Virus record (IMG/VR): IMGVR_UViG_3300028591_000018
Strand: one strand, 5' to 3'
DNA: 64,000 nucleotides
DNA from: an uncultured virus (IMG/VR IMGVR_UViG_3300028591_000018)
Taxonomy: Duplodnaviria > Heunggongvirae > Uroviricota > Caudoviricetes
The stretch's first letter is position 1. Every line of letters begins with the position of its first letter. Shown here in pieces: positions 15,465 to 63,999 of this stretch. Both the position numbers and the translations under genes were made by a program. A model generated the notes under the pieces. The model saw nothing but the letters and a program-made list of their open reading frames with translations. It searched no databases and had not been told where the DNA came from.

Positions 15465-15466
15465 AT

Positions 15467-16312: not shown

Positions 16313-16347
16313 TTTATGAGCGACCTCCTTTCTTTAAATGTCTTTTA

Positions 16348-16356
16348 TGCTATAAT
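16348..16356 (+). promoter_or_regulatory. Extended -10 host-type promoter
   Basis: TGCTATAAT, 7 nt upstream of ATG 16364. Confidence 0.6.
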
Positions 16357-16363
16357 GAAATTT

Positions 16364-30544: not shown

Positions 30545-30850
30545 TCACTCATGGCCACCTCTCCACTTCACTCCACAGTTTGGGCAAAAATTCTCGTATT
30601 CTAATTCATGAAAAAATGTTGCACCGCATACGGTACACTGAGATACACAAAATCCAATGCATTCGCATTCCCCCGTTCGCTTACCCATAGCAGTATTCCA
30701 TGTTTTTGCAGCCTCTTCAAGTGTTTCGAAGATCGCTGTTTTCATTCCACATTCCTCACAGGAAATGTAATAACCTTCTGTTTTCATGTATCCAATCATA
30801 TGAGCATACGCTTCACTGCCACAACCGCATTTTGCAAGGTTTTCAATCAT
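30545..30850 (-). CDS. Lar-like (restriction alleviation family) Zn protein
   Basis: CGCG..YYISCEECG..EEAAKTWN plus a C-terminal FCPNCG ribbon. Confidence 0.6.
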   Translation of the reverse strand: MIENLAKCGCGSEAYAHMIGYMKTEGYYISCEECGMKTAIFETLEEAAKTWNTAMGKRTGECECIGFCVSQCTVCGATFFHELEYENFCPNCGVKWRGGHE

Positions 30851-38606: not shown

Positions 38607-39023
38607 TCATCCTTTTCGATCGTTCCAGTTATTAATAGCATCACGCAGTTTAAAATAGCGCTTTGTCTGCAGACCACAATCATGACATTCGATAAAAAAG
38701 CTGTGATTATATTCTTTCAGATCTGCGATGCCATGGCACTTCGGACAATTTTTCAACGCACTTGTATCTACAATGCTTGGTGAGTATTTTTCACGCAGCT
38801 TTTTTTCAGCATCTTCACGTGTAAAGAAAAATGCGGTACCTTCATAACTTCCCCAGTAAGATCCTTCATTATTTGTTTTCATCTGTATTACACCGCCTGA
38901 ATAAATCTCAAGACTGCTGACATGGACTGCTTTTACAAAAGGATGATCTTCCGCCATGTTCTCGATCACATAAATATCTTTTCCGACATAGTCAAGATAC
39001 TTGTCCAGATTCTCAATTTTCAT
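38607..39023 (-). CDS. Protein with C-terminal Lar-like Zn domain
   Basis: LKNCPKC..FIECHDCG..DAINNWNDR. Confidence 0.6.
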   Translation of the reverse strand: MKIENLDKYLDYVGKDIYVIENMAEDHPFVKAVHVSSLEIYSGGVIQMKTNNEGSYWGSYEGTAFFFTREDAEKKLREKYSPSIVDTSALKNCPKCHGIADLKEYNHSFFIECHDCGLQTKRYFKLRDAINNWNDRKG

Positions 39024-39684
39024 CTTCTTTCTCTCTTTCTGAAAAAACCTCAGGATCCCAGTCTTCCCAACGAGTCCATACACCATGCTCATTCCGGCCG
39101 ATGCAGTGATGACCGTCATAATCCTCATCGTACCAGCTGAAGTTGATCACACAGTTAGGATTGTCTTTAAATATCTTATCGATGATCGGTTCGGGATAAG
39201 ACCAGGCTGTATCAAAATGGACTACGCCAAAACCATTATCATCATAAGAGACACGCGTTTCACAGGCATTCCATTTGGTTCCCCAATTATCAATAGACCA
39301 GGTATACCAGCTTCGATATCCGTATGATTTATAAGCCGTGAAATATTTCTCCCCTCTTCGATAGTATTCCCCAGAATGGTTATTACAGTCGCGCAGCATT
39401 CTTTCAATCATGACTGGATCATTGAAATACCATCCATCATTGTTAAAAATATTTCCAAATCGTATAAAAATTTCACGTGGGCTGATTTTGCCCCTGGCGC
39501 TCAGATACCAATAAAGGCATAGCGTAGTATCACCGCCTTCAGACATATCAGGATCCTGATAAATATCGGGACGTGGGATCACCTTATTAAAGTCAAAATA
39601 GAGATCCCCATCTTCATCCTTTGACAAATATTTTTCAATGACTGCTTTGGGAGCTTCCAGCATGCAATAAGTCCAATTCGGCAT
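39013..39684 (-). CDS. YubB/DUF1281 ferredoxin-like protein
   Basis: MPNW, FDFNKVIPRP, NWGTKWNA, FDTAWSYP. Confidence 0.75.
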   Translation of the reverse strand: MPNWTYCMLEAPKAVIEKYLSKDEDGDLYFDFNKVIPRPDIYQDPDMSEGGDTTLCLYWYLSARGKISPREIFIRFGNIFNNDGWYFNDPVMIERMLRDCNNHSGEYYRRGEKYFTAYKSYGYRSWYTWSIDNWGTKWNACETRVSYDDNGFGVVHFDTAWSYPEPIIDKIFKDNPNCVINFSWYDEDYDGHHCIGRNEHGVWTRWEDWDPEVFSEREKEDEN

Positions 39685-45938: not shown

Positions 45939-48900
45939 TCAAACAGGTTCCGGAACATCCCGGAACCATTCGAAATCACCATACTGTGAAATATCAATTA
46001 TCGCTTCATCCACCAATCGGTCATAATAAGACCGGTCTATGAATGCATCATAGTTGCCAAAATCCCGGATATCTTCTGATTCCATCCAGAGATAATCTTT
46101 GGCTCCTGCTGCGGAATCGTATTTCACATTTCCGTCTTTATCAATAGCTTCACGAACGAGCCGTCCGCCACCCATTCCCGGTTTAACCGGACAAAATTGC
46201 CCGACACGACCAACGAATTGATAGTCATGTTCTCCTTCCGGAAGCTTTTCATTAAAATCAAGAACCAGACAGCTGGTTACCTGTTTGGTTTCGCACATGT
46301 CTTCGAACTCAATCGGCGCTTTAGCAAAGAGTGTTTTAAAGACATACGGAACCTGAAATTCTGTACCGGTTGCAGTCCAGCCTTTTTTCCAGGCATTTTT
46401 TTTATCTGTCGGATCCCAATTTTTATCATGAGCAATGTAAACAGCATCATTCACCAGACAGAATCGGTCAAACTCTGCTTCTGTTTCAAAGTTGTAACCG
46501 AACTCATGCCCAAAAGCTTTTACAAAGTCAAATATCTTTTGATCCCAATTCGGAATCTTGATTGAATCAGTTTTTATGTGCGCCACCTGATAGCCGCGCT
46601 TTTGCACTTCCTGCTTCAGCAGTGTCATGAACAATGCGCCGCGTTTGGCCACAATATTATCCTTATTCCGCAGATCCCGGAATGGATTCTCAAACCTGGC
46701 ACTGGTCAAACCATACACCGAGTTGATTGCAATCTTCAAAGCATTTGCCAGCCCCTTTGCCTGATCTGCATTCGTCAGCCACTTCGCCAGTTTTCCATCC
46801 ATCATCTTTGCAGCTTCTGAAAAGTCACCGGTTTTAATGGCTTTCTTTACCGCTACACGAATATCCACAAGGTCATAGAACTTTCGGCTGTACTTTGGCC
46901 CAAAGAGTCTCTCAGCCCATATGCTGTGGGGGTGCATAGAAGTTACATCTGCGTCCCAGACATTTCCGTACATACCGGGCTCAGAATATACTCGTCCACC
47001 CTCTCCGATCTCCTGATCAAGATAAGTTGATTTCCCAGCATCAAACTTATACCCGGGAAAGAAGGGCAGGATCGAGTATCCAGAGGGTAAGGATCCTCCA
47101 TTGTAAGTTTGATAGGTTGGTAATCCGCTGCTGTCGAACACGTGAAATTCATAATCTTCTCCAAATAGTTCCCTGTACTCCGAATATCTTTCCGGACCGA
47201 CCGGTTCAGCCAGATTGCGGTAGTTAAACTGACTTTGCGGGTTCCGGTCCTGACCGAATATAATTCGGGTTGTCAGACTGTTGGTTGTGGCGTTAGGTGT
47301 CATTCCGGCAATATCTGCCAAAATCATCCGTGCCAGAAAATCGTCCTGACGATCCTTACTGAAAAATACCGCCTCGGTTGCGATCACATCATTATCACAA
47401 TAAAGAGCAACTTCCTCCCAACGATCCTTCGGAACCGGCTGATCCCAGGGAAGTGCCAGTTCTTTGTGATGGATTCCCAGATCGATTTCAAATTTTTTCA
47501 GGGATTGTTTTACACTGCTGAAGTCATAAATATCTGTATAGGAAACTTCATAAGCATCTCTGAAAAATGCGTTCTTATCTTTATCGATAATCCCTTTGGA
47601 AACTTCATAGATCTGTTCAAGATTCTTACCAAGTGATCGTGCATACAAAATATGATTGTCATATCTCCGACAATTGAAACCGACAAGATGAAAATTGGTC
47701 ATCAATTTGTAAACTTCTTCCGGATCCGGGTTGAACATCCGTACCGGAGGATGGTCAGGGCCCGGATACTTCCAGCAGATCAGCAAAAGATTCGGAAAGA
47801 CCTCAACATCGAAAAATATCAATGGGAGATTCTCATTCTGTTCTTCTGCAGTCGGTTCAATATAATCATCGGAGCATAGTTTCATCTTTCCGACAAGCTT
47901 GATTGCTTCCCTGGCATGGTGAGTGGACTGTGCAGCAAATGAATAAATTGCATCATGCATCTTCCGCACATCATAAGACAAACCGTCATTGTAGGCGCGT
48001 TCCAAATCGTTGTAGATCATGTTGACACAGTTATATGTGCCATTGACATTTTCTTTATTCAGGTTTCGCTCGATCGCCTTGATCAGTGCTTTGTCGTTAA
48101 TAAACGACTTAAAATTAATCACTTTCTTTTTCTCTTTCTTCAAAGGGAGACCTGAAGAAATCGTGGCTACCGGCAGGTCATTGCATTTTGTCAGCATTCT
48201 CCGGAGAGAACTTCCGCCATTAAACACCTTTACTTCAATGTGATCCGCGTAATTGATCTGCAGCTCGGTCGGATCACCCTGATAAATATAATGCAGGTGG
48301 ATTCCGGCACCGGACTTACTTAATTCTGCGTAAGTCGGAGGCCATTTTGAAGCTGCTTCCAGATTCTTTTCAAAACATTTGTTGCCGTTTTCATCCGGAA
48401 TATCAAAGTCAATGACAATGTGCTCCAGCGGCACTTTTACATAATGCAATTTTCGTGTGTTGATGCCTGAAAGTTTTGTAAAACAATTATCCCAGGCTTT
48501 CAGCGGAGTTCCTTCTGAGTTTGCATACTGAGCAGGAGCTTTAGCCATGAGAATATCAAACAGGGAATCTTCACAGTTAAATGTCAGCCATTTATCGTCC
48601 TTTTTATCTCCATTTTGAATGTCTTTCTTTTTCCAGGTCTCTTCGAATTTTTCGGTTTTGAATCCACTGAACCAACTGCGGATCCGTGTTCCGTCTTCGA
48701 GTGTGACCCGATCTTTATAGTCTTCAAAGTAGTTTTTCAGTTCTTCTTTGAAAGCTCTTTGGGAAAACGGATAAACTACTTTAGCTTCCTCGCAGAATGT
48801 TTTATACATGTCATACGCAGCTTTCAGTGACACTCCGTTTTCTTTTTTAAACACAAAATAGCTGTCCGAGACAAAGTTGAAAAAATCATTTGACGCGTCC

Positions 48901-49937
48901 AGCATTTTCAACGGAACATACTCTTCATAGCATTGAGGATCGTCCAGATAAACCTGCTGACAATGCCATGCGATCGCCCCAAGTTCAAAGTCGATCATTT
49001 TCATCAAAATGTCGTATTCTCTTTTTGGAATCTTATGCCCGGTCGGTGTAACATCGATCAAACGTCTCAGCAAGCCTGATTTCGCATCGGTTATCCGCAC
49101 CGGTTTGTTAGTTCCCATAAATAGAAATGAGTTGAAGCGCATCGAATACTGTGGTTTATTTTTTTCATTTACCAGTAATGTCTCGTGAGAGACAATAGAG
49201 TTCAAACGGGTGTTGTCTTCAATATGAGACAGATCGCCATCATGCTGGATCGCAACCAATGGGTTGGACTTGAACGGTTCCAGTGCAAAACTGGCATTCG
49301 CCGATCCAAGTGCTTTCGCGTCAAACACACTACAATATCCTTCAAAGAGTTTTTCAATGATATGAATTACAGTGGACTTGCCTGATGCCGGAGGTCCGTA
49401 AAACACCAGAAATTTCTGGATGTTTTTCGAATCCCCGCTAACAACCGCACCGATCGCCCATTCGATCTTGTGTCTTTCTTCTTCAGAATATAAAACAGAA
49501 AGAAGCCGGTCCCATGCTTCTATGCTGCCTTCCTCAAGCGGATAGCTCAGTGTTTTGCTGGCGTAATCCCGTTTTTTGGTTTTCTGATTGGAAAATATCA
49601 ATTTCTCGTCCAGCTGATGATAATTTTCCCGCATCTGCTCTTTACAATAGTGATGGAACGTATCAATCATCTTGTTATTGCCCATTTTCAGATGCTTGAT
49701 TTTCGGTTTGCGGTCCCACTTACCGCGATGCGCTTCATAATAGTCATCCATCTCACGATCAATAATATCAATCAGATCCTGTTCGACGGTTGACCACAGG
49801 TTTTTTTCTTCAACCCATACTGCGTAAAAATCTTTCGCACGAACCATTAAGTCTGAGGTCCTGTTATTGACAATGAACATTGGGAAAATCTCCGTTCCTT
49901 TTTTTGTTTCTTCATCGGAGATCGTAACAAAGTCCAT
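45939..49937 (-). CDS. SF3 helicase-primase-family B DNA polymerase fusion
   Basis: GPPASGKST and MGTN; IDFD and SKSGAGIHLHY; Exo motifs FDVE, GFN..YD, YCDND; PolB motifs DVTSMHP, KIAINSVYG, KTDS. Confidence 0.85.
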   Translation of the reverse strand: MDFVTISDEETKKGTEIFPMFIVNNRTSDLMVRAKDFYAVWVEEKNLWSTVEQDLIDIIDREMDDYYEAHRGKWDRKPKIKHLKMGNNKMIDTFHHYCKEQMRENYHQLDEKLIFSNQKTKKRDYASKTLSYPLEEGSIEAWDRLLSVLYSEEERHKIEWAIGAVVSGDSKNIQKFLVFYGPPASGKSTVIHIIEKLFEGYCSVFDAKALGSANASFALEPFKSNPLVAIQHDGDLSHIEDNTRLNSIVSHETLLVNEKNKPQYSMRFNSFLFMGTNKPVRITDAKSGLLRRLIDVTPTGHKIPKREYDILMKMIDFELGAIAWHCQQVYLDDPQCYEEYVPLKMLDASNDFFNFVSDSYFVFKKENGVSLKAAYDMYKTFCEEAKVVYPFSQRAFKEELKNYFEDYKDRVTLEDGTRIRSWFSGFKTEKFEETWKKKDIQNGDKKDDKWLTFNCEDSLFDILMAKAPAQYANSEGTPLKAWDNCFTKLSGINTRKLHYVKVPLEHIVIDFDIPDENGNKCFEKNLEAASKWPPTYAELSKSGAGIHLHYIYQGDPTELQINYADHIEVKVFNGGSSLRRMLTKCNDLPVATISSGLPLKKEKKKVINFKSFINDKALIKAIERNLNKENVNGTYNCVNMIYNDLERAYNDGLSYDVRKMHDAIYSFAAQSTHHAREAIKLVGKMKLCSDDYIEPTAEEQNENLPLIFFDVEVFPNLLLICWKYPGPDHPPVRMFNPDPEEVYKLMTNFHLVGFNCRRYDNHILYARSLGKNLEQIYEVSKGIIDKDKNAFFRDAYEVSYTDIYDFSSVKQSLKKFEIDLGIHHKELALPWDQPVPKDRWEEVALYCDNDVIATEAVFFSKDRQDDFLARMILADIAGMTPNATTNSLTTRIIFGQDRNPQSQFNYRNLAEPVGPERYSEYRELFGEDYEFHVFDSSGLPTYQTYNGGSLPSGYSILPFFPGYKFDAGKSTYLDQEIGEGGRVYSEPGMYGNVWDADVTSMHPHSIWAERLFGPKYSRKFYDLVDIRVAVKKAIKTGDFSEAAKMMDGKLAKWLTNADQAKGLANALKIAINSVYGLTSARFENPFRDLRNKDNIVAKRGALFMTLLKQEVQKRGYQVAHIKTDSIKIPNWDQKIFDFVKAFGHEFGYNFETEAEFDRFCLVNDAVYIAHDKNWDPTDKKNAWKKGWTATGTEFQVPYVFKTLFAKAPIEFEDMCETKQVTSCLVLDFNEKLPEGEHDYQFVGRVGQFCPVKPGMGGGRLVREAIDKDGNVKYDSAAGAKDYLWMESEDIRDFGNYDAFIDRSYYDRLVDEAIIDISQYGDFEWFRDVPEPV

Positions 49938-51881: not shown

Positions 51882-52829
51882 TCATGCCGCAAACCCTTTT
51901 ACCAGACCCAGATCGGTCATAGGATTCAGCGGATGACAGTTGAAATGAAGCGGAATCACCGGTTCAAGTCCGTTTGCGAAATCCCGTACGATCTGATTAC
52001 TGAAATCATTGATACCGAAATCGATCACATCTTCAAGTCTCGGATCATGCTTATCCCAGAACCATCCCCAGCCGAAACTTTCAGCAGGCGGATTTTTCCC
52101 AAAGTGCTGATAAAGTTCATTCACCATGAAATATCCTTTGGAATAGTCTGTTGCCCGGGACTGCATAATGTCCTGACATTCTCGCTGAATGAGCTTAAGT
52201 ACACTCATATTATTTCCTGGAGTATGCTGATAGTTCGGGTTGGTACGGTCAAATATAAAATCGAACGGCCCGCCGGCACCGGTTTCAACCAGCTTCTGAT
52301 AAATCGGAACTTTCTTGGTTTTGCCGTCTTCACCCACTTCGATTTGAGTGCCGATCTTTTTATTTGTCAAACCGTAAAAAAGATCATTCTCTGCTTCTTC
52401 GCCGACTTTATCACGAACCCTCTCACGATAATTTTCCAGCTGCTGTGTCAGGACCATCGCCGTAGATGCCAGTGCAGCATTACGTTTCACCATAATGCCA
52501 TGACTGTACCAAATGGCGACGATCGACAAAATTTCCAGCAAAAGCGGGATCCAAAACACTTTCAAATAACGCCAGGCGCTTTTTCCGCCGATTTTAATAC
52601 AATTAGCAACATGTTTCTTACGGTCAGGTTCTTCTTCATTTTCATAGCGGGTCTGCTCTTCTTCAAGCTCCGCATGATTTTCTTCTGTTGCTGCTTCTGC
52701 TTCTTTCATTTTTGAGCAGGCTGTGATCAGCGCAGCAACACCCAAAATAATGCCGCCGGCTGTTAAAATTTCAGGACTTGCCTGCTTCAAGACAAGTCCC
52801 GCTTTCGATAAAATTACTTTTACGTTCAT
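51882..52829 (-). CDS. DUF6353-like membrane-anchored protein, paralog 1
   Basis: SPEILTAGGI; two hydrophobic segments; YRERV..G.E.E; GWGW. Confidence 0.7.
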   Translation of the reverse strand: MNVKVILSKAGLVLKQASPEILTAGGIILGVAALITACSKMKEAEAATEENHAELEEEQTRYENEEEPDRKKHVANCIKIGGKSAWRYLKVFWIPLLLEILSIVAIWYSHGIMVKRNAALASTAMVLTQQLENYRERVRDKVGEEAENDLFYGLTNKKIGTQIEVGEDGKTKKVPIYQKLVETGAGGPFDFIFDRTNPNYQHTPGNNMSVLKLIQRECQDIMQSRATDYSKGYFMVNELYQHFGKNPPAESFGWGWFWDKHDPRLEDVIDFGINDFSNQIVRDFANGLEPVIPLHFNCHPLNPMTDLGLVKGFAA

Positions 52830-54015: not shown

Positions 54016-54798
54016 TTAGAGAACTGTAAGACGGTTGCGATAATGATAAATTGCAATATACGGTGTTCCGTTCTTCGTCATACCGGTTGTATAGTCAAAC
54101 ATGATGCTTTGTGATCCGTCAAATTTCCCGGACCGTTTCCAACCGATATTTTCGAAGTTCGTATTGATTCCGAGCAGAGCTTTTGTGTAATCATCGAGAT
54201 AGAGCTCTTCTTCGGTTTCATAAATACCCTGAAGATCCCTTTCGACGGATTTCACATGCTCCATACTGTCATGAAAATATCTTGTGGTAATTGAATCATA
54301 AAACAGCGTGTCCCCATGCCCGGTTTCAATAATTCCGCGGACCGCACCTTCTGTTTCGAACGGATGCTTTTCTACCTGCTTTTCCATAGCAGTATCCCGG
54401 ATCGCCTGTTCTTTTTTATCACCGACGGTTTCCAAGGTCGCATCCATATAATCCTTCAAATATGATTCAGAAAGCGCATATGCAGTGGATAGAGCTGCAT
54501 AGCGCTTTACCATTCGTGTCGTGTTCACCACCAGACATCCGATTGTCAGACCTAAAATAATCACAACAGGAATGAACCTTTTCCACACGACTTTTATTAT
54601 TTCTTTAGGAGTTAATTCCTCAACCCCCATTTCTTCTTTGGCCTCTTCAATATCTTCTGCGGATTCTCTTCCGGCTTTTACAGCCAGAATAACCGCCGAG
54701 ACCATACCGATAATTACAGCACCCGTCGCAATCGGGGTACTGTTTGCTTTTGCCCACATCACAAAATGTTGGGCAAGCGCTTTGATTGGTACTTTCAT
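54016..54798 (-). CDS. DUF6353-like protein, paralog 2
   Basis: NSTPIATG; two hydrophobic segments; FYDSITTRYF; IGW. Confidence 0.7.
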   Translation of the reverse strand: MKVPIKALAQHFVMWAKANSTPIATGAVIIGMVSAVILAVKAGRESAEDIEEAKEEMGVEELTPKEIIKVVWKRFIPVVIILGLTIGCLVVNTTRMVKRYAALSTAYALSESYLKDYMDATLETVGDKKEQAIRDTAMEKQVEKHPFETEGAVRGIIETGHGDTLFYDSITTRYFHDSMEHVKSVERDLQGIYETEEELYLDDYTKALLGINTNFENIGWKRSGKFDGSQSIMFDYTTGMTKNGTPYIAIYHYRNRLTVL

Positions 54799-55149
54799 TT
54801 GTTTCCTCCTACAAAAAATACGCTGAAACTTCATCCGCAGCATCACGCATGTTGCAGAAAAGTTTATGCGCTTCACTGTCCGGATTTGCCTGAGCAGCCC
54901 GGGCGTTCATCCGGTTGATAAAAATATCAATCAGATTGATCAGCTCATCTTCAAATCTATGCTCGATGAGATAATTTTTTAATTCATTCAACCCCTGACG
55001 CTTCTGAGCGATCGTCAGTTCTTTTTCAGGTGAGATCGGATGATCCGGGAAGCTCACCTGAATATCGATATAATTTTCAATGATATCGATAGCAATTCGA
55101 ACATCATTTAAATAGACAGGAGCTTCATCCTCAGGATTGTAGTAGACCA

Positions 55150-55908
55150 TTAAATAATCATCTCCATCGGCCGCGGCATCGGCAGATCAATCACATAATA
55201 TTCAAGGCCGCTTTCATCCGTATCTTTAAAAATATGAGGATAAAGCATACTTACACCATAACGTCTGGTCAGATCATACGAGTCCCATCCGTAAGCAAAA
55301 TACTTTTGGTCCATCGGTTCCCGTACTTTGGCCAGTTTGAAAAATTCAGCCATCTCGCAGCATTCCGGGCCTTTTTCCATTTTTACATTAAGCTCTGAAA
55401 TGGCGTTTGTGACATCTTCAATGCACGAAACAGTAAAAAATGAATCATATCCCGGAAGCATACAGGTGATCCCATCATATTCTTTCGGAGGATCATTATG
55501 AATATTCTCCCGGGTAACTTCTGAGATGATCCGATCATCGCTTTCTTTTCCATTTTGAAAGACGTTATGCTGCCGGTATTGGTTATATGCTGTTGTAACT
55601 CCGGCTGCATATACAGTCAGATCCCTTATCCGGTGATGAGATATCACCGCTGAACTGACAATGCAAAACAATGTAGCCAACAGACAAAGAAAAGAAGGAG
55701 CATAAATTTTGACTAATGTTTTACCCATTTCAAAGCTTTGAGTTTCCTCTTCGGCAGCTTCATTTAATACTTCTGCAGCTTCTTCGGTTTCTTTGATCGT
55801 CAAAATATAAAGTCCGATCAACCCGATTCCTGCGGCTGCACTTAAAAGAAAAGGAACATTCCGCTGAAGGATCTTCAATGCGGCTGCTCCTGCTTTAGCA
55901 AGATTCAT
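55150..55908 (-). CDS. DUF6353-like protein, paralog 3
   Basis: NVPFLLSAAAGIG; two hydrophobic segments; YGW. Confidence 0.65.
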   Translation of the reverse strand: MNLAKAGAAALKILQRNVPFLLSAAAGIGLIGLYILTIKETEEAAEVLNEAAEEETQSFEMGKTLVKIYAPSFLCLLATLFCIVSSAVISHHRIRDLTVYAAGVTTAYNQYRQHNVFQNGKESDDRIISEVTRENIHNDPPKEYDGITCMLPGYDSFFTVSCIEDVTNAISELNVKMEKGPECCEMAEFFKLAKVREPMDQKYFAYGWDSYDLTRRYGVSMLYPHIFKDTDESGLEYYVIDLPMPRPMEMII

Positions 55909-56342
55909 ATCTCCTCCTATGCGGCAAGAACCCGCATACTTTTCAGAATATCTCCCAACCGTTCTCCGTCTGCTTTTCTTCTGTCAAGTTCCCACATCTC
56001 ATATGATGTAAGCTCTCGTTTCAGCGTCCAGTGATGCCCGATTGAATGGTCATAAATATGCGTACGCTGATATTGCTGTTCCCGTTCAATTTTGCTCTTA
56101 CGGAACTTTGTAATGGCCCAGTTTGCACCACCGATAATGGTACTGCCGACAGTAATAACTTCCGGGTTATCAACGCACCACTTTGCAACTTCTTTAACCT
56201 GCTTCACAATCCATTTACATGCTTTCACGAACTTGTTCCAGCACTTTTTCACAAGGTTCTTTACCTTTTTCAATAAATTTTTCATTTGTTTCCTCCTTGA
56301 AAAAATAAAAGTGCAAGCGAAAGCTCACACTTTTTAAAATTA

Positions 56343-56477
56343 TTACTTTTTGCTTCCGCCTTGGAAGCATTTAAGAGCGATTGTCGCTCCTATGACAATT
56401 AAAATAATTGGCCTAATATCGGACCATACGGTCCAGCCAAAACAACATAAAAATAAGGTTACTAATATGCTAACCAT
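56343..56477 (-). CDS. 44-aa two-helix membrane peptide (not in ORF track)
   Basis: MVSILVTLFLCCFGWTVWSDIRPIILIVIGATIALKCFQGGSKK; AAAGGAG RBS; cassette context. Confidence 0.65.
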   Translation of the reverse strand: MVSILVTLFLCCFGWTVWSDIRPIILIVIGATIALKCFQGGSKK

Positions 56478-56529
56478 ATTTTTTTTTCTCCTTTTAACAA
56501 AAAATTAAGAGCAGATCATCTATGTCTGC

Positions 56530-56557
56530 TCAATAAAGGAGTTGTAAATTTCGCGAT
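56530..56557 (-). promoter_or_regulatory. Phage promoter motif copy 10, with GAGCAG hairpin at 56509-56531
   Basis: ATCGCG-AAATTTACAACTCC-TTTATT-GAGCAG. Confidence 0.72.
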
Positions 56558-56877
56558 CAGTTTGAGTCTGATTCAAAAACCCGAATTACTTTATAATCAA
56601 AAAGTTTTGCTCCGAGTTCATCAAGTTCATCGGCGGTCAGATTCTTTCCCCGCTTTTCAAACGGGCATGCATAATCAATAGAAGTCATGTACAGTGCGTA
56701 CTGAGCAATATGTGCCGGAAGGGCTCCGATCACATGTTTGCCTTTAATATCATCAATGGTAACGCTGGCTTTTACTTCTCCGGTAATTCCGCGGCGTTTC
56801 AGCCACTCTACAGTACCCTCATGACGGGTCACAATAAGGGTTTCAATTTTAGGGGTTTGCGTATCTGCAACGGTCAT
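56557..56877 (-). CDS. Csx16 (Cas_VVA1548)-like protein
   Basis: LIVTRHEGTVEWLKRRG...VIGALPAHIA...RGKNLTADEL...GAKL matches the Csx16 pattern (S/T)RHxG..EW / VIGxLPxHxA. Confidence 0.75.
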   Translation of the reverse strand: MTVADTQTPKIETLIVTRHEGTVEWLKRRGITGEVKASVTIDDIKGKHVIGALPAHIAQYALYMTSIDYACPFEKRGKNLTADELDELGAKLFDYKVIRVFESDSN

Positions 56878-57531
56878 AAAATCCTCCTTCAGGAATTCAA
56901 ATATTCAAGGTCGCGCTCCCAGTGAAGCGCTAATGCATCTTTGTCAGTCAAACCGATAAACTCGTCATTATCAAAGGTCAATTCATTTGGATAATATGTG
57001 AACAGAAGCGTCCAATCTTCTTTTTCATCATGCCAGATAAAAACACCCATTAAAGATGGGTCTGAAATACATTTTCTGATTTCACATTTAACAATGACGT
57101 CCATGTCCATACTAAATTTCCTTTCTGTCAAATACTGTCTCCCATCGCATTTTCGGGAGCGGTTTCATACGAAGCGCCCACATGATCTGGCGCACAGTAA
57201 CAGTTGGGTAAAGTCCATCCTTACAAGGCTTTGCCCGTTTTTCAAAAAACTCCGGAAAGTTCGGATTCAGATAAATATCTGCAGCCAGATTTCTTCCGAT
57301 TTCACGCCAGTAAGTGCATTTTGTTTGCTGACTGAAGTATTGCCGGATTACAGCAATCCCCCGATCCTTGACCAAATATAATGTGCAGCGGTCATACACC
57401 GGATGCTTACACAAATAAAGCCGGCCATAAACTCCCGGTCCATGGTCGGAAGATTCGTAATGGTATCGCATAATGCCCTAAAAAAAATAAGAGGCTATGC
57501 ACCGAAGTGCACAACCTCTATAAAATATCGT

Positions 57532-58065
57532 TTAACTTCTTTTCTTAAACATTCGATCGAAATCGAATGCATGCCGGGAAATATCTTTCCCCGATGCAGA
57601 GGTGATCGTCTCACCTCCTGCCTCAAACGTGTTCTGGCGCTGCATCAATGCGCCATAACATATGAATGATACTACGGTACCTGCAATGCTCAACAGAGCA
57701 TTGAGGAAACCATTTCTCTTAATAGATTTAACCTCTTCTACCCGAAGAGCAATCTCCTCCTCGCGGCACTGCTTATCGAACTCGATTTTTTCAAGTTCGG
57801 CTTCGGATTTTTTCTTTTCGAGTTCAAGCCGTGTATGTGCGACTTGTACCTCTTTCATCGTTTTTAACGATGAAATCAATTTTTCCGATTTTTCTGGCTG
57901 TTCATCCGAACAAGCCATGGCCTTTTTCAATAGTTCATCCGACGCTTCTGCGTAGATGTCTTCCGGAATTTCAACGATTTCCGGGTTTTCAACAATTTGT
58001 GCCGCTTCTTCAGCGACACTTATTTCATTCACAGATTTATTATTTTTTTGATACTTCTTTCCCAT
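57532..58065 (-). CDS. Coiled-coil protein with C-terminal TM (cassette gene)
   Basis: Own promoter, hairpin and terminator; AAAGGAG RBS. Confidence 0.7.
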   Translation of the reverse strand: MGKKYQKNNKSVNEISVAEEAAQIVENPEIVEIPEDIYAEASDELLKKAMACSDEQPEKSEKLISSLKTMKEVQVAHTRLELEKKKSEAELEKIEFDKQCREEEIALRVEEVKSIKRNGFLNALLSIAGTVVSFICYGALMQRQNTFEAGGETITSASGKDISRHAFDFDRMFKKRS

Positions 58066-58112
58066 TTTTCTCCTTTTTTACAAAAAATAAAGAGCAGATC
58101 ATCCGTGTCTGC

Positions 58113-58140
58113 TCTTTAAAGGCGTTGATTTTCTCGCGCT
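58113..58140 (-). promoter_or_regulatory. Phage promoter motif copy 11, with GAGCAG hairpin at 58092-58114
   Basis: AGCGCG-AGAAAATCAACGCC-TTTAAA-GAGCAG. Confidence 0.65.
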
Positions 58141-58494
58141 CAGTTTTCGTATTTAATTTTTACATCAAATACAGCGCTCAGTGAAAAATCAAGATTTTTC
58201 AGGGTATCCTGATCTTTCAACTCCAGAAGCAACTCTGCTGACCCATCGGAATGCACAATTTTATAAAGTGTTCCGATCGGCTCTGGTTTTACAGATTTTT
58301 TGATCAATCTGCCAATACACCAGCCGATAGCTCCTCCGATCGCAAACCAGATCGGAATCGGCACCGCTATAATGAAATTCTCAATCTCCTGAATCATGAA
58401 AACTCCGTATAAAAACTTTTTTCATTTTTCCTCCCCCGGGAATTTTTGCATTAAGAATATACCATTTTGAATTGTCACCTGAGTACGGAACTTT

Positions 58495-58827
58495 TCAGTC
58501 AGATTCATATCCTCTTTCTATCAGTTCAAGAATTGCATAATTTGCAATATCTTTCAAAGTATCTTCGATGCTTTCATCAGCAACATGCACATCGTGACTA
58601 CTATAAAGCCTTTTCAAACGATTGAGTTTATCGGTGAGACGATAGCAGATTGAATTCGGAAATTCCTTCCGAAGTTCCGCAAAACTGTCGCCATAATCTG
58701 CATTTTTCCGTTCATACAAATCTGTCAGTTCCTTACAGATTTTTTTATGCTTATTAACCTTATTATGTTGTTTACCCATTTCCATTAATTCATCACAGTA
58801 TTTTTTATCATATTCGGTGGTATTCAT
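58495..58827 (-). CDS. DUF1599 / nucleotide-modification-associated domain protein
   Basis: KNADYGDSF, RLTDKLNRL, ESIEDTLKDIANYAIL. Confidence 0.8.
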   Translation of the reverse strand: MNTTEYDKKYCDELMEMGKQHNKVNKHKKICKELTDLYERKNADYGDSFAELRKEFPNSICYRLTDKLNRLKRLYSSHDVHVADESIEDTLKDIANYAILELIERGYESD

Positions 58828-59211
58828 TTTTTCCTCCTCCATTTTGAATGCCCTATTAATGCCGAAACGGTTACTGCTTGTTCTATAATATTCACAAATC
58901 ACATTAAAACACATAGCCAAGCTCCACCAATCCACTGATAATATCATCCAAATGCTCATCTGCAAGCCGTTGAATGGCTCCGCGCATTCGTTCCGGGTCT
59001 TTTTCCATTAAACATTCATACAATTTATTACATAGCCATGCTTTTTCATAGCAATCAATAATCTTCCGGTTAGCTTGTTTTTCCGGTTGATATACCGCAC
59101 GGGAATATGATCCTCTGAGGCCCTTCACAAGCTTCTCGGTAAGCACCACATTGTACTCGTTGATTCGTTGATTTGTGATCGGATTTACTTCATCAACCAT
59201 ATAGATTTTTC

Positions 59212-59535
59212 TCATTTTTTCTGATCCTTTTCATATTGTCGTTTGAAGAATTCAAAAGCCTTGTCGACCGTAAGATAACCGACTACTTCATCACCATATT
59301 CTTCTTCTGTAATATCAAAACCCATCGCTTCCAGAAGTCCGTACTCATGACCATATGAACCCATATTGCACACAACATCCCCACATCCAGGCTTCCTAAG
59401 TTCCCATTTTCCATCTGAGGAATACCGGATCTGTCCGCCAAATATTGGATTATCATCACATAAGAATTCATGCGGAATTCCGGCGATTTCAAGTTCTTCA
59501 TGCAATTTCTGTAACGGTTTAATTAAATCTGTCAT
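59212..59535 (-). CDS. Hypothetical protein
   Basis: MTDLIKP with GGAGG RBS; GSYGHEYGLLEAMG..VVGYLT. Confidence 0.7.
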   Translation of the reverse strand: MTDLIKPLQKLHEELEIAGIPHEFLCDDNPIFGGQIRYSSDGKWELRKPGCGDVVCNMGSYGHEYGLLEAMGFDITEEEYGDEVVGYLTVDKAFEFFKRQYEKDQKK

Positions 59536-59559
59536 TTTACCTCCAATAAGATCCAATAG

Positions 59560-59658
59560 AAAAAAAATAAAAGAAGTTGAACCGAATCGAACGGTTCCAG
59601 GCGGGCAGACAAGACCCGTCGCCCACTCACAAACTTTCGTTTGCTTTAACTTCTTCTC
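59560..59658 (-). ncRNA. tRNA-like small RNA (non-canonical)
   Basis: 8-bp closing stem, GAAA-tetraloop arm, central arm and GAACCG-TTCGATT-CGGTTC T-arm; own promoter (copy 12, 59657-59684) and T tract. Confidence 0.65.
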
Positions 59659-59683
59659 ATTAAAGTCCATGTTAATATTGCGT

Positions 59684-59826
59684 AAAAAATAGCAGGAGAT
59701 GTGTTAACTATAAACTCTACCTGTTGTGCAGCTATCTCACAACAGCAACTTTATAGCAACGGATATCTCCTGCTTAATTTAATGCCAGCTCATTTTTTCT
59801 CCTTTCTTTAAGTGAACTAGCTCCTA
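59684..59826 (-). ncRNA. Small RNA with SD and MSWH minigene (59779-59793)
   Basis: Promoter copy 13 at 59823-59850; AAAGGAG-AAAAA-ATG AGC TGG CAT TAA; long AGCAGGAGAT/ATCTCCTGCT terminator stem. Confidence 0.65.
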
Positions 59827-59848
59827 TTTAGACTATGTTTTTCATGCG

Positions 59849-59954
59849 AAAATAAATAGGAGAAGCGCCTGCAATTAACGCTTCTCCTTTCAAATAATTA
59901 ATAATATTTGTACAGTGCTAGGTCATTTTTCCTCCTTCCTATTGCACTCTCATC
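59849..59954 (-). ncRNA. Small RNA with SD and MT minigene (59918-59926)
   Basis: Promoter copy 14 at 59953-59980; AAGGAGG-AAAA-ATG ACC TAG; AGGAGAAGCG/CGCTTCTCCT terminator. Confidence 0.65.
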
Positions 59955-59979
59955 ATTATAGAAGATGTTTTTTTCGCGG

Positions 59980-60071
59980 AAAAAATAAGAGCCTTTGCAA
60001 CGACTCTTATTTTTAATAAATATCTTTGCACCTCCTTTCTTCATAGGAACCTGCTTTCGGGTATGCAGGTC
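59980..60071 (-). ncRNA. Small RNA with orphan SD
   Basis: Promoter copy 15 at 60070-60097 (TTCGCA-N14-TATAAT); ACCTGC/GCAGGT hairpin; AAAGGAGGTG; AAAAATAAGAG/CTCTTATTTTT terminator. Confidence 0.6.
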
Positions 60072-60097
60072 ATTATAGAGAATGTAAATCTTGCGAA

Positions 60098-60514
60098 TTA
60101 TTTCCGCAATTTCGAGAGGATCCAGAAAAATCTTCGAAAGCTTTCATAATACGTTTCCTTACAGCAGGGAACGTCCATACGAGCCGTCAGGTATTCATAG
60201 GAAATTCCTTCTGTGACTCCTTTGAAAATATAATTTCCCAAATCCTCCGAACAAGCTTTTGCCGCCTTATCAACCATATCCAGATGGTCTGTCAGCAATT
60301 CCCGCCGCAGCACAGCCGTAAGAACCGGATCACTCGGCCCCGCGGATTTTCCAATTTTTTCGGAATACGGCGATCCCATCAGGCTGATCATTTTCAGCTC
60401 TTCCTTCCATTCCGGATACTGAAGGCAAAAATGCTTCAGCTCATAAAACCGATGTCTGCTGATCCAGTATGAACTGCGCTTTGAGATCTCAGGACGAATA
60501 TTGGTACCCATCAC
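60098..60514 (-). CDS. Putative transcriptional regulator (RinA/ArpU-like)
   Basis: ELKHFCLQY.EW..DPV..A; C-terminal HTH-like ISYEYL..TYYESFRRFFW. Confidence 0.5.
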   Translation of the reverse strand: MMGTNIRPEISKRSSYWISRHRFYELKHFCLQYPEWKEELKMISLMGSPYSEKIGKSAGPSDPVLTAVLRRELLTDHLDMVDKAAKACSEDLGNYIFKGVTEGISYEYLTARMDVPCCKETYYESFRRFFWILSKLRK

Positions 60515-60753
60515 CGCTCTCCCTTCCAGACAAAGCCTGTATGCTCGAAAAGCAGTTTGGGCGAAATATAATAATTGATCCGCCCGTATTTGCTGTTCAT
60601 TTCCTCAATAGAGGTGACCAGTTTGCCGTTCCGTGTTGCGTTCCCGATAGGTAGCCATCCACAGATCAAACCGGCCCGCACCCAGCACGCATCCTTCCCG
60701 TACGCCCGCGCTGCCACGGACACCGGTACATTACCGTTAGAATACTCTTCCAT
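60511..60753 (-). CDS. Small winged-HTH / excisionase-like protein
   Basis: VPVSVAARAYGKDACWVRAGL..LPIG..YYISP. Confidence 0.55.
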   Translation of the reverse strand: MEEYSNGNVPVSVAARAYGKDACWVRAGLICGWLPIGNATRNGKLVTSIEEMNSKYGRINYYISPKLLFEHTGFVWKGER

Positions 60754-60836
60754 AAATTTCTCCTTTCGTGAGTCTTCTATCTCCGAAACTTATTCTATGA
60801 TAGCCAGGCGTAATCTAAAATAAAAACTTATGTTGA

Positions 60837-60890
60837 AAAAATAAAAGGAGTTGTAAAAATAAAAGGAGTTGTAAAAATAAAAGCCCTTGT
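60837..60890. repeat. 18-bp tandem repeat (2 exact copies and 1 variant)
   Basis: AAAAATAAAAGGAGTTGT twice, then AAAAATAAAAGCCCTTGT. Confidence 0.85.
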
Positions 60891-60908
60891 GGGGCTCAAC
60901 TTCCTTTC

Positions 60909-61085
60909 TTATTCAAATTTTGCTGAGATCTTCTCAGCAAAGTCCATTCCGATTTCGAACGCTTCTCCATAAAGCGTCATAAACATCTTGAAATACCACC
61001 GACGAAGCGGTGGAATACAACAAATAATTATGGACAAAACTGTCCAAATCAATAAAAATCCAAAATAAATATTTATAAAATTCAT
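60909..61085 (-). CDS. 58-aa membrane peptide (not in ORF track)
   Basis: MNFINIYFGFLLIWTVLSIIICCIPPLRRW...; AAAGGAG RBS; cassette context. Confidence 0.7.
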   Translation of the reverse strand: MNFINIYFGFLLIWTVLSIIICCIPPLRRWYFKMFMTLYGEAFEIGMDFAEKISAKFE

Positions 61086-61131
61086 CTTTTTTCTCCTTTT
61101 TTAAAACAACGAGCAGATCATCCATGTCTGC

Positions 61132-61159
61132 TCAATAAAGGAGTTGTAAATTTTGCGAA
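61132..61159 (-). promoter_or_regulatory. Phage promoter motif copy 16, with GAGCAG hairpin at 61111-61133
   Basis: TTCGCA-AAATTTACAACTCC-TTTATT-GAGCAG. Confidence 0.72.
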
Positions 61160-61183
61160 AAATAAGAGGCCTTGCGGCCTATC

Positions 61184-61348
61184 TTATTCAATCGTAATCG
61201 GGGTGATCACGATTTCTTCTACCACGATTTCTTCCAGTTTTGGTCCGGGATCAAGTCCCGGGGTTTCATTAATTTTCTCTGATCCGCTGCACGCGGATAA
61301 AGTAATGGCCATTATGGCCAGCAATACAATGATAAAGAACTTTTTCAT
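61184..61348 (-). CDS. Small lipoprotein (cassette gene)
   Basis: MKKFFIIVLLAIMAITLSAC lipobox; promoter copy 17 at 61372-61399. Confidence 0.75.
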   Translation of the reverse strand: MKKFFIIVLLAIMAITLSACSGSEKINETPGLDPGPKLEEIVVEEIVITPITIE

Positions 61349-61438
61349 TTTATCCTCCTTTAGCTCTTTCTTCATTAGAGGATCTGTTCTTATCGCGAAA
61401 AAAATAAGAGCCCTTGTGGGCTCCATTTTGATTCGGTT

Positions 61439-61768
61439 TCATTTCGCCTGCTTGGCCCAAAATCCCATGCCAAGCTCCGATGCATATTCATGCATCAGAT
61501 CTATGTCATTATATGACCAATGTACCCATTGGTACTTGGCCATATCAGAGAACCTATCAGGTTCTCCTTCCGGTGCGGTTTCCCACACGCCTTCGACCTT
61601 AGCGGTCGCAATAATCTCACCTGCATTATTATGCAGGTAGAAGTTTGTTATTGGTTCCACAACGTATTTTACGTTGCGGTTTAATACATACAGTGCCATC
61701 AGGCTGACGACACAAACAACTGCTGCGATAACAGCAGTCTTCATCATAATGGAATTAAACTTTTTCAT
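61439..61768 (-). CDS. Membrane-anchored cassette protein
   Basis: N-terminal TM; promoter copy 18 at 61801-61828; GAGCCCACAAGGGCTC terminator. Confidence 0.7.
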   Translation of the reverse strand: MKKFNSIMMKTAVIAAVVCVVSLMALYVLNRNVKYVVEPITNFYLHNNAGEIIATAKVEGVWETAPEGEPDRFSDMAKYQWVHWSYNDIDLMHEYASELGMGFWAKQAK

Positions 61769-61788
61769 TTTTATTCTCCTTTCAAATT

Positions 61789-62217
61789 TTAAGTTTTCTT
61801 CCATAGTAGACCTTGCGCATATCGCGACCAGAGATAGATACTCAGGTAACTTGCACCGCAGCCGGCAGTAATACCGCTTTGGATTTTTACAAAAGTATTA
61901 CGGTCATAGTGTTTATATGGAAGAAGAAAAGAAGGAAGAGTAAGAAAAACTTTTCCGCATTTTTGACAGCGGTATTTTGGAAGATAGATCCAATATCGGA
62001 ATCCATAAAAATCAATCATTTTGCGTTTGCGATATCCGTACCGCCACATGGCAAGGCCGGTATTGCATTCAGGACAGCATACGGGTTTAGTGTATCGAAG
62101 ATGATACCCATCAGAATAAACTATCGGCTCGTATTCGATCATGATCATGTAAAAAATAAGTGCATAATACATACGAAAAAATAAAAAGGATAAGTTACAA
62201 ATTTGTGATCCGTTCAC
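61789..62217 (-). CDS. Zn-ribbon protein (DUF6431-like); start uncertain
   Basis: CPEC..YGYRKR..RCQKCG..LPSFLLPYKHY. Confidence 0.6.
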   Translation of the reverse strand: MNGSQICNLSFLFFRMYYALIFYMIMIEYEPIVYSDGYHLRYTKPVCCPECNTGLAMWRYGYRKRKMIDFYGFRYWIYLPKYRCQKCGKVFLTLPSFLLPYKHYDRNTFVKIQSGITAGCGASYLSIYLWSRYAQGLLWKKT

Positions 62218-62374
62218 ACCGGATCATTCATAAATCCTATCCTGTAAAAATTCAAGCTACAATTTTGCTCTCCACGGGTCATGTAGCCAACCTCTGTTTA
62301 TGACCGTTCCTTTCCAAGTTTACGGTTAACCCAATTTCCGGTAAGGCACTTTCATAAAGCACACCTTTCCCTCA
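62176..62374 (-). ncRNA. Structured ~200-nt RNA unit
   Basis: Promoter copy 19 at 62372-62399; several hairpins; AGGATAG/TTATCCT closing stem and T tract. Confidence 0.55.
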
Positions 62375-62433
62375 CTATAGTCCATGCGCACATCGCGAAA
62401 AATAAAGAGCCCTTGTGGGGCTCGTTTCAAAGG

Positions 62434-62655
62434 TCAGTGATGACCTTTGAACAGAAATACTTCTAAGTCTGAGTCGTAGTCCAACTCTGACTCTGAAACC
62501 TTTTTTACTGGCTGCTTTTCTGCAGCCTCTACGTCTTCGATATACCCTTTGATATATCCAAAAACCCCAATTAACGTGACAGTAGCTGCCACAAAACAAT
62601 AAATTGTATTTATTGTTTCAATAATTTTTTTGATTATTTTAAAAAATTTTTTCAT
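62434..62655 (-). CDS. Single-TM cassette protein
   Basis: AAAGGAG RBS; promoter copy 20 at 62704-62731, GAGCAG hairpin at 62683-62705, terminator at 62398-62423. Confidence 0.7.
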   Translation of the reverse strand: MKKFFKIIKKIIETINTIYCFVAATVTLIGVFGYIKGYIEDVEAAEKQPVKKVSESELDYDSDLEVFLFKGHH

Positions 62656-62778
62656 ATTTTTTTTCTCCTTTTTAAAAATAAAGAGCAGATCATTTATGTC
62701 TGCTCAATAAAGGCGTTGTAAAAACCGCGATTATAAATTGTAGGAGTATAATAACTTCTACAAGGAGAAAAAATATCA

Positions 62779-63999
62779 ATGCTGATAAAGTGTCCGGAAT
62801 GTGAACTGTCAGTGAGTGATAAAGCCATTATATGCCCTCACTGCGGCTATCCTTTAAAGCCCGAAGCGAAGAATATCAATTACCGATCCACCAGAAGGAA
62901 GCGCCTTCCGAATGGTTTTGGGCAAATATCAAAGATCAAAGGGGCGAACCTTCGTAAACCTTTCCGAGCCATGGTCACGATCGGAAAAACCGACGAAGGA
63001 AAACCCGTATGCCGATTATTACAGCCGGAAGCCTACTTCGAAACCTACAATGATGCTTATCAGGCATTAGTAAAATATAATAAAGATCCATATGTATTTA
63101 GCAATAATTTAACTGTTGGAGAGCTATACGAAAGATGGAGTGAATATCATTTTAAAACAATTTCTGCAGGTGCGGCGACAAACCTTGGAGCAGCCTGGAA
63201 ATACTGCAATTCCATCAAAAATATCAAACTTGTTGATCTGCGAAGTCGGCACATAAAGTATTGCATGGAAGAAGGAACTGTTACACTAAAAAACGGAAAT
63301 ATCAAACATCCCTCAGTAAACATGAAAAACGTGATTAAAGTCATGTTTAATCAAATGCTTGATTATGCTGTTGAATACGAATTGATCGATCGAAATTATG
63401 CCCGAAACTTCTCTGTATCAAAAGAAGACCGTAAAGAGATGGCAGAAAACCGTGAAAGCCATATCCCGTATACTGATGAAGAAATCGAAAAACTCTGGGA
63501 AAATATCAATTTCAATGAAGTTATAGGTATTATTCTGATTCAGTGCTATACCGGTTGGCGTCCGAAAGAACTTGAAATCATGAAAATCAGTGATATTGAC
63601 CTTGAACTTGGAACCATGAAAGGCGGTGTCAAAACCAGAGCCGGCAAAAATCGCATTGTACCGATCCACTCAAGAATCTATGATCTCATTAAAAAGTATT
63701 ATGAAGCCAGTAAAAAATCCGGCAGCGAATATCTTTTTACAATGACCGGCCGCAGCAAACTATTTTCCTACACGAAATTCGATTGGAACCTGAAACAAAT
63801 CAAGTCACAATTAAATCTAAACGACCGTCACCGTCCCCACGATGGTCGTGCGCACTTTATCACCCAGGCCAAAAAATATCACATGGATGAATACGCCATC
63901 AAACGAATCGTCGGACATGAAATCAAAGACCTAACCGAAAACGTCTACACCACCCGAGATCTCGAATGGCTAAAAGCCGAAATCGAAAAAATACCTTAA
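62779..63999 (+). CDS. int: Tyrosine integrase with N-terminal Zn ribbon
   Basis: TGWRPKEL (R), KT (K), HDGR (HxxR), VGH, VYT (Y); AAGGAG RBS. Confidence 0.92.
   Translation: MLIKCPECELSVSDKAIICPHCGYPLKPEAKNINYRSTRRKRLPNGFGQISKIKGANLRKPFRAMVTIGKTDEGKPVCRLLQPEAYFETYNDAYQALVKYNKDPYVFSNNLTVGELYERWSEYHFKTISAGAATNLGAAWKYCNSIKNIKLVDLRSRHIKYCMEEGTVTLKNGNIKHPSVNMKNVIKVMFNQMLDYAVEYELIDRNYARNFSVSKEDRKEMAENRESHIPYTDEEIEKLWENINFNEVIGIILIQCYTGWRPKELEIMKISDIDLELGTMKGGVKTRAGKNRIVPIHSRIYDLIKKYYEASKKSGSEYLFTMTGRSKLFSYTKFDWNLKQIKSQLNLNDRHRPHDGRAHFITQAKKYHMDEYAIKRIVGHEIKDLTENVYTTRDLEWLKAEIEKIP

Follow-up and report, generated by a model that had tools for sequence, protein, structure and literature searches.

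Introduction

Ring nucleases decide between recovery and growth arrest after type III CRISPR signalling, and viral copies turn this switch against the host. Ring nucleases encoded by viruses and plasmids can act as anti-CRISPRs (PMC12830947, PMC13148439), and AcrIII-1 is the only viral ring nuclease family that the available text of PMC12409355 and PMC12830947 cites as a functioning anti-CRISPR. The nearest described relatives of the gene reported here are the cellular Csx16 proteins, which lie in or next to a type III locus. Csx16 was earlier predicted to be a ring nuclease on account of conserved His, Arg and Asp/Glu residues and a partial likeness to DUF1874, and its homology with DUF1874 was only suggested (PMC8284326). 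One purified Csx16 has meanwhile been reported to degrade cyclic tetra-adenylate (cA4) fully, with no degradation of cA6, and none of cA3 even at 10 µM, which was 10-fold more enzyme, so that Csx16 still behaved as cA4-specific (PMC12409355, Hoikkala et al. 2025). According to the available text of that study, cA3, cA4 and cA6 were the only substrates assayed with Csx16 (PMC12409355), which lends no support to a cleavage of SAM-AMP. The same source surveyed 38,742 genomes and counted 68 type III loci with Csx16, all of which also have cA4-type effectors; of 28,114 phage genomes, 2 have Csx16, compared to 36 with AcrIII-1 (PMC12409355).

The related families differ in their activity. At high enzyme concentration, cA3 is cleaved by the sister family Csx20 as well; Csx15 has almost no nuclease activity, and a function as a sponge is considered for it (PMC12409355). 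Csx15 is also said to include non-enzymatic members (PMC13148439). Csx20, Crn1 and Crn4 are, like Csx16, small stand-alone cOA phosphodiesterases, and their phage copies may be anti-CRISPRs (PMC12409355, PMC12830947). Crn4, which has phage and plasmid orthologues, has an unrelated fold and a broad specificity (PMC12830947).

Here, we analysed a Csx16-family gene that is carried by a phage. A sequence-only reading of the same DNA had described Csx16 as proposed to degrade cyclic oligoadenylate; the degradation stands, and the qualification that it is only proposed has been overtaken by the cA4-specific activity cited above (PMC12409355). Our literature search found no test of a phage-encoded Csx16 as an anti-CRISPR. 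If the gene works as such, it would add a second family, unrelated in sequence, to the tested viral ring nucleases, in a prophage lineage that is widespread in Clostridia of the human and animal gut, and it would offer a handle on how far type III immunity shapes phage-host dynamics in the gut. Since both the activity of Csx16 and its occurrence in phages are already in print, the gain would be incremental.

A temperate phage of gut Clostridia without cas genes

The DNA examined, here called the window, is the whole 64,000-nt (64-kb) stretch of the uncultured virus record IMGVR_UViG_3300028591_000018, and it represents a tailed, temperate, siphovirus-like phage. We scanned its 87 ORFs of at least 80 aa, and the recognizable ones are all phage genes, including the following, which were assigned by family scan:

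1-2781, minus strand, tape measure gene
13734-15464, minus strand, TerL gene
45939-49937, minus strand, gene for a DNA polymerase/primase of 1332 aa
62779-63999, plus strand, tyrosine integrase gene at the right end

Further structural and lysis genes encode an M23 lysin, a holin, a tail assembly chaperone, a portal protein and a capsid-region protein that carries a prohead protease domain, and the nucleotide and replication genes include those for an anaerobic ribonucleotide reductase (NrdD), a dUTPase and a single-strand annealing/binding protein. The DNA polymerase has its closest counterpart in Faecalibacterium phage FP_oengus (54% identity), and scanning it against the genome contigs returned no relatives. 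TerL has 152 relatives in genome contigs, and the best 80 of these 152, at 74-83% identity, include prophages in isolates of Hungatella hathewayi, Clostridium leptum, Blautia glucerasea, Enterocloster lavalensis, Cuneatibacter caecimuris and Faecalibacterium tardum. The TerL relatives together with the affinity of the polymerase thus indicate that the window is a member of a widespread lineage of temperate phages of gut Clostridia.

The sequence-only reading had stated that the window holds neither cas genes nor an array, and this proved correct. Apart from the PF09652 match described below, none of the 87 ORFs belongs to a Cas family, Rfam gave no matches in the 64-kb window, CRISPR repeats included, and there is no repeat array. 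The sole short-range direct repeat consists of two copies of a palindrome of 25 nt (23794-23892). The 64-kb window contains no tRNA either. A degraded remnant of a CRISPR locus was considered as the origin of the gene and rejected, as the window contains no cas fragments and no repeats.

A divergent member of the Csx16 family

The gene of interest is an intact ORF on the minus strand that starts with ATG and encodes 106 aa. The elements of its immediate surroundings are:

56557-56877, minus strand, Csx16-family (Cas_VVA1548) gene, candidate cA4 ring nuclease and anti-type III CRISPR gene (from the PF09652 match, predicted fold and motifs)
56883-56887, minus strand, Shine-Dalgarno sequence GGAGG, 5 nt before the ATG (read from the sequence and the ORF coordinates)
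56889-57131, minus strand, ORF80, directly upstream of the Csx16 gene (ORF call; no Pfam or PHROG family)

The Csx16-type signature that had been claimed for this protein was confirmed with the Cas_VVA1548 profile. Pfam PF09652 (Cas_VVA1548/Csx16) matches with 64.2 bits (E 1.3e-17, gathering cut-off 25), and the alignment places residues 15-97 on profile positions 2-90 of 91, i.e., the full domain. It is the sole Pfam family found for the protein at E <= 1, a scan in which DUF1874 (AcrIII-1/Crn2) did not appear. The NCBIfam model TIGR02620 'Csx16', a hypothetical-equivalog domain model with a curated cut-off of 46.35 bits, gives 35.3 bits (E 1e-8), and because this score is below the cut-off, the protein belongs to a divergent branch of the Csx16 family. 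Neither Pfam nor NCBIfam returned a match to Csx20, Crn1 or Crn4, PHROGs contains no family for the protein (best E 0.28), and a PDB sequence search yielded no ring nuclease (best E 0.33, DARPins).

To assess selection we compared codons with two homologues on viral contigs, L001 and L003. The dN/dS values were 0.22 against L001 (dS 1.13) and 0.26 against L003, indicating that the Csx16 gene is under purifying selection. A chance ORF was rejected in view of the strong ribosome binding site, the family match and the dN/dS of 0.22.

Conserved residues and predicted fold

When the window protein was aligned with 156 distant family domains, three conserved motifs emerged. Position 17 is Thr or Ser in 149 of the 156 domains, followed by R18 (145) and H19 (149); G51 is found in 154, L53 in 141 and P54 in all 156; R76 in 139 and G77 in 147. 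The window protein carries the consensus at each of these places (T17 R18 H19, G51 L53 P54 and R76 G77), and these residues are invariant across 27 of 27 close relatives. The RH motif mentioned by the sequence-only reading is therefore present as R18-H19, and it is both the family consensus and invariant in the clade. The S/T-R-H, G-x-L-P and R-G motifs are common to the window protein and the CRISPR-locus Csx16 of Allochromatium vinosum, and are located after strand 1, strand 3 and strand 4, respectively. We infer that these are the catalytic residues.

Two positions set the window protein apart. It has Ala55 where the family has Leu, and, as the one notable departure, a Ser at position 38, in the loop after strand 2. 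This column is His in 100 of the 156 distant domains, Gln in 24 and Arg in 10. His is also present in the A. vinosum CRISPR-locus Csx16, in the copies of Deinococcus proteolyticus, Allomeiothermus silvanus and an archaeal plasmid, and in Methanobacterium virus Drs3. Ser is found in the window protein, L001 and L003, and in 27 of 27 close relatives; Gln or Asn occurs in the viral contig L002, Bacillus phage Shbh1, plasmid pSC2 and Clostridium phage phiCs5676-1.

An AF2 model of the 106-aa protein (pLDDT 89.3, pTM 0.75) shows five strands that alternate with helices. The predicted fold is a small, five-stranded Rossmann-like (CARF-like) one with a weak likeness to DUF1874, and in this model the conserved loops would lie at the C-terminal edge of the sheet, the side at which ligands bind in Rossmann-like folds. 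Foldseek searches of the model against PDB and BFVD gave no match at E <= 0.001; the structural matches are all weak and many are generic Rossmann-like proteins, and there is a weak likeness to the AFV3-109 fold. The same weak likeness is described for cellular Csx16, where it is linked to Crn2 (PMC12409355).

An accessory gene in the early arm

Leftward transcription applies to all window genes except two. The Csx16 gene is situated about 6 kb into the leftward arm from the integrase end, between integrase and replication module, and a long way from positions 1-17451, where the packaging and structural genes are found. Expression early in infection would fit this position, and the earlier assignment to the early region is borne out as far as gene order goes. 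The following elements define its neighbourhood:

56498-56531, minus strand, terminator-like hairpin (56509-56531) followed by a U-rich run, 26 nt past the Csx16 stop codon (RNA fold)
57112-57471, minus strand, ORF119 (phrog_17256, E 5.2e-51), a conserved backbone gene at the upstream edge of a variable slot
57490-57519, minus strand, strong terminator-like hairpin of 13 pairs with a T-run that closes the preceding unit (terminator scan)
51882-52829, 54016-54876 and 55150-55908, minus strand, three paralogous DUF6353/phrog_2152 genes (family scan)

The RNA fold of 56478-56560 on the minus strand has a free energy of -16.7 kcal/mol (z -2.47), and 3 of 200 shuffled sequences fold as well; a consensus terminator scan did not list the hairpin at 56509-56531. 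The hairpin at 57490-57519 probably marks the upstream edge of a three-gene cassette, ORF119-ORF80-Csx16. There is no consensus sigma-70 promoter on the minus strand between this hairpin and ORF119, so the boundaries of the cassette are inferred ones. The stop codon of ORF80 (56889-56891) abuts the Shine-Dalgarno sequence of the Csx16 gene, and the two genes are probably co-translated or co-transcribed. In the region 55800-62800, we found 20 terminator-like sites versus 5.8 ± 2.4 expected from shuffled sequences, which suggests that this hairpin-dense early arm is divided into numerous short cassettes, each with a terminator of its own.

The 90-kb viral contig L001 shows full synteny with this region, with ORF152, DUF1599, ORF119, ORF80, Csx16, ORF122 and the DUF6353 genes. 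Its Csx16 homologue is 79% identical to the window protein, and its ORF80 homologue (67.5% identity) is located upstream of the Csx16 homologue with about 300 nt in between. The DUF6353 set, just downstream of the Csx16 slot, is conserved in L001 as well as in prophages from five isolate genomes. These genomes contain six prophage copies that keep ORF119, at 50-57% identity, as well as the DUF6353 genes, and the approximately 1-kb slot between them holds other small genes; Csx16 and ORF80 are absent from the ORF119-adjacent slot in all six copies. We also searched for the Csx16 family in 50 genomes with TerL-related prophages, which were drawn from the 80 best TerL loci and chosen for Clostridia labels and isolates, and found it in none of them. 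As a positive control, the search recovered the family in 4 of 5 genomes taken as holders. A survey of 400 other genomes of the phylum of one Clostridia MAG gave no matches and hence no cellular comparators. The difference in slot content between prophages, together with the absence from these 50 genomes, shows that the Csx16 gene is accessory cargo in a variable slot. Its capture by the phage, as the sequence-only reading had it, is conjectural.

Upstream in the same arm, the minus-strand ORF at 58495-58965 encodes a DUF1599 protein ('nucleotide modification associated domain 1') whose L001 homologue is 81% identical over 89 residues; a function in DNA modification is possible.

Size and architecture of the family

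A search of 5.8 billion clustered proteins returned 27 at E <= 0.001, being the window's own sequence and 26 others. This close clade is 59-83% identical to the window protein and entirely metagenomic, with several members on contigs of 72-90 kb. A profile built from the 27 relatives reached further: at E <= 0.001 it retrieved 1802 clusters at 50% identity, so that the family comprises at least this number in metagenomes, and 475 of them at E <= 1e-10. When the window protein and the 149 best distant representatives were examined, PF09652 was matched by all 150 and any other nucleotide-binding family by none; TIGR02620 was matched by 129 of them at E <= 1e-4. Tandem fusion of two Csx16 domains occurs in 12 of the 149 distant representatives listed, and the Allomeiothermus (A. 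silvanus) plasmid copy also has two Csx16 domains in one chain. These two-domain fusions fit with a dimeric working unit.

One of the 150 proteins is a fusion with the anti-restriction protein Lar. The window itself encodes Lar restriction-alleviation domains on the minus strand at 38607-39128 (36.2 bits, over the cut-off) and at 30545-30850 (21.9 bits, under the cut-off). The Lar-domain proteins of the window and the Lar-fused Csx16 relative link Lar and Csx16 as putative counter-defence modules.

Csx16 on other mobile elements

An alignment-based scan of IMG/VR found 25 contigs that encode relatives 31-79% identical to the window protein; a single-protein pattern scan of the viral contigs gave no relatives. 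The neighbours on these 25 contigs include terminases, portals, capsids, primases and an RNA polymerase. When the 238 ORFs of at least 110 aa within 5 kb of the relatives were inspected, no cas families were present except PF09652 itself and an IS605-type TnpB. Four genome contigs found with the clade motifs show a phage or integrated-element context, also without cas genes. Three cultured phages encode relatives, Methanobacterium virus Drs3, Bacillus phage Shbh1 (gp42) and Clostridium phage phiCs5676-1, and tblastn against plasmids gave matches in six records that represent five distinct plasmids. The phage and plasmid copies are only 29-37% identical to the window protein, and in Shbh1, phiCs5676-1 and pSC2 the Csx16 domain is located inside a longer protein. 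Four of the five distinct plasmids, from Paenibacillus, Deinococcus, Allomeiothermus and an archaeon, carry orphan copies outside any annotated CRISPR locus:

L036, L038, L039 and L040, orphan plasmid copies annotated as 'Csx16' on the large plasmids pSC2, pDEIPR02, pMESIL02 and P-10H_0

Their neighbours are hypothetical genes, ssb genes, type IV secretion coupling proteins and lytic transglycosylases. The fifth, A. vinosum pALVIN01, is the only plasmid copy inside a type III-B locus (Cmr4-6, Csm6, Cas1/Cas2); its annotated Csx16 is 33% identical to the window protein (E 5e-13). This sequence, obtained by the plasmid tblastn, is the one CRISPR-locus comparator used in this study. We examined the surroundings of copies on 25 viral contigs, on 4 genome contigs, in 3 cultured phages and on 5 plasmids, and a single one of these loci is part of a CRISPR locus. 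As a tentative wider reading, most of the diversity of this 'CRISPR-associated' family might consist of phage and plasmid counter-defence genes.

A fifth genome contig, a candidate from a Limnobacter MAG (L030), turned out not to be Csx16: it had a tblastn E of 9e-5 and a malonate decarboxylase operon context, and PF09652 was absent from the genome.

Several of the viral contigs have further features. On L005-L007, L016, L021 and L023 the Csx16 homologue adjoins packaging genes. On L017 the homologue lies between the large terminase and portal genes, and the contig also contains a DruA (Druantia) gene (E 2.2e-88):

L017, 2413-3732 and 8001-8270, DruA/Csx16 side loci

A pentapeptide-repeat protein is encoded directly after the Csx16 homologue on L002 (8270-8728) and L003 (6903-7406). 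The pentapeptide-repeat fold is known for DNA mimicry, and this may be a second counter-defence gene.

Type III CRISPR in the host group

Among the 50 genomes with related prophages, the cut-off for Cas10/Csm1 was exceeded in a single genome, that of Faecalibacterium tardum, and the cut-off for Cas10/Cmr2 in a single other genome, a Ruminococcus MAG (G423). Both modules look complete, with Cas6-Csm5-Csm3-Csm2-Cas10 in F. tardum and a type III-B set of Cas6, Cmr2, Cmr3, Cmr4 and Cmr6 in the Ruminococcus MAG, which also holds a related prophage. Right after Cmr6 in the latter (L156, 6998-8227) lies a gene of 409 aa with a sub-threshold match to a Card1-like endonuclease (23 bits versus 26.4). 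Card1 is a cA4-activated type of effector, and it is possible, as far as this match goes, that the 409-aa protein is one as well. Type III CRISPR therefore does occur in the likely host group, but it is not common there. This scarcity fits a rare accessory counter-defence gene, without proving selection by type III.

Proposed function and alternatives

Since Csx16 is cA4-specific and occurs in phages (PMC12409355), the window gene is best read as encoding a ring nuclease that serves the phage as an anti-type III CRISPR. We estimate the probability that it is a stand-alone Csx16-family ring nuclease that degrades cA4 and counters type III immunity at roughly 60%. According to this model, the phage would produce the protein early, and the small Rossmann-like (CARF-like) chain would form a homodimer in which the conserved loops T17-R18-H19, G51-x-L53-P54 and R76-G77 bind cA4, the second messenger that Cas10 would make once the type III complex senses phage RNA. 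Cutting of cA4 into linear products would keep the cA4-activated effector nucleases off, and the phage, or a lysogen carrying the gene, would escape type III immunity.

The window protein shares with cellular Csx16 the same Pfam family over its full length, a similar size (106 aa versus 105 aa in A. vinosum) and the motifs. It differs in being phage-encoded without cas genes, in scoring below the TIGR02620 cut-off and in having Ser38 instead of His, and whereas cellular Csx16 is found in or next to a type III locus, the window copy is not. In this it resembles the other phage and plasmid copies, which are stand-alone proteins or fused domains on mobile elements outside CRISPR loci; compared to these, it is part of a close-knit group of 27 metagenomic proteins, several of which are encoded on phage contigs 72-90 kb long. 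AcrIII-1/Crn2 (DUF1874) has no sequence match to the window protein, and the structural likeness is weak.

Ser38, the sub-threshold TIGR02620 score and the scarcity of Cas10 in related hosts weaken the main reading and keep rival explanations alive, which are taken here in order of how well they survive. The broadest is that the gut-phage Csx16 clade is not a plain copy of the cellular cA4 off-switch. Its members could have an altered chemistry or substrate, either as a sponge or as a nuclease for another cyclic oligonucleotide, or they could provide lysogen protection made by the prophage, in which case prophage Csx16 would damp type III self-targeting triggered by leaky prophage transcripts. 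The invariant Ser38, the TIGR02620 score under the cut-off and the temperate phage setting together lead to this alternative, which we regard as tentative and on the whole unlikely.

In a narrower form, the protein would be a phosphodiesterase for another signal, such as cA3, cA6 or a CBASS-type cyclic oligonucleotide, and would counter another defence or a type III variant. This fits the divergent branch under the TIGR02620 cut-off, with Ser38, and with Ala55 instead of the family Leu, and the rarity of bona fide Cas10 (2 of 50 genomes with related prophages); moreover, Csx20 also cuts cA3 at high concentration (PMC12409355). However, the only Csx16 assayed in that source is cA4-specific even at 10 µM (PMC12409355), and one of the two type III loci of the host group is followed by the 409-aa gene with its sub-threshold Card1-like match, which makes a different signal quite unlikely.

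It is also improbable that the protein is a non-cutting sponge that binds cA4 or another cyclic oligonucleotide and sequesters the signal. Ser38 stands in place of a His that 100 of the 156 distant domains and the CRISPR-locus Csx16 have, which would agree with loss of cutting, and Csx15, nearly without nuclease activity, for which a sponge role is discussed (PMC12409355) and some members of which are described as non-enzymatic (PMC13148439), offers a precedent. However, the S38 column is naturally variable (Gln in 24, Arg in 10), R18 and H19 show the highest conservation among the polar residues of the family (145 and 149 of 156) and are invariant in the clade, and a sponge requires stoichiometric amounts.

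A role outside defence signalling, for instance nucleotide binding in phage DNA or RNA metabolism with only the small Rossmann-like fold in common, is the least likely of the alternatives: the weak structural matches to many generic Rossmann-like proteins, the neighbour genes without assigned function, and the at least 1802 metagenomic clusters, set against 68 CRISPR loci in 38,742 genomes (PMC12409355), would suit it, but the match is to one specific family at full length (PF09652 in 150 of 150 representatives), the conserved polar motif is common to the CRISPR-locus member, the gene occupies a variable accessory slot and not the replication module, and a fusion to the anti-restriction protein Lar occurs in one member of the family.

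Other features of the window

The two copies of the 25-nt palindromic repeat at 23794-23892 are 74 nt apart and hairpin-forming, and do not constitute a CRISPR array. DUF7211 proteins flank TerL on both sides. Within the minus-strand packaging block there is a plus-strand ORF at 16316-17110 (264 aa) with a weak IBR zinc-finger match, which is the sole sizeable plus-strand ORF besides the integrase gene. Finally, the minus-strand ORF at 19189-21987 encodes a protein of 932 aa with helix-turn-helix matches at residues ~109-146 and 886-929 and no recognizable domain in between.
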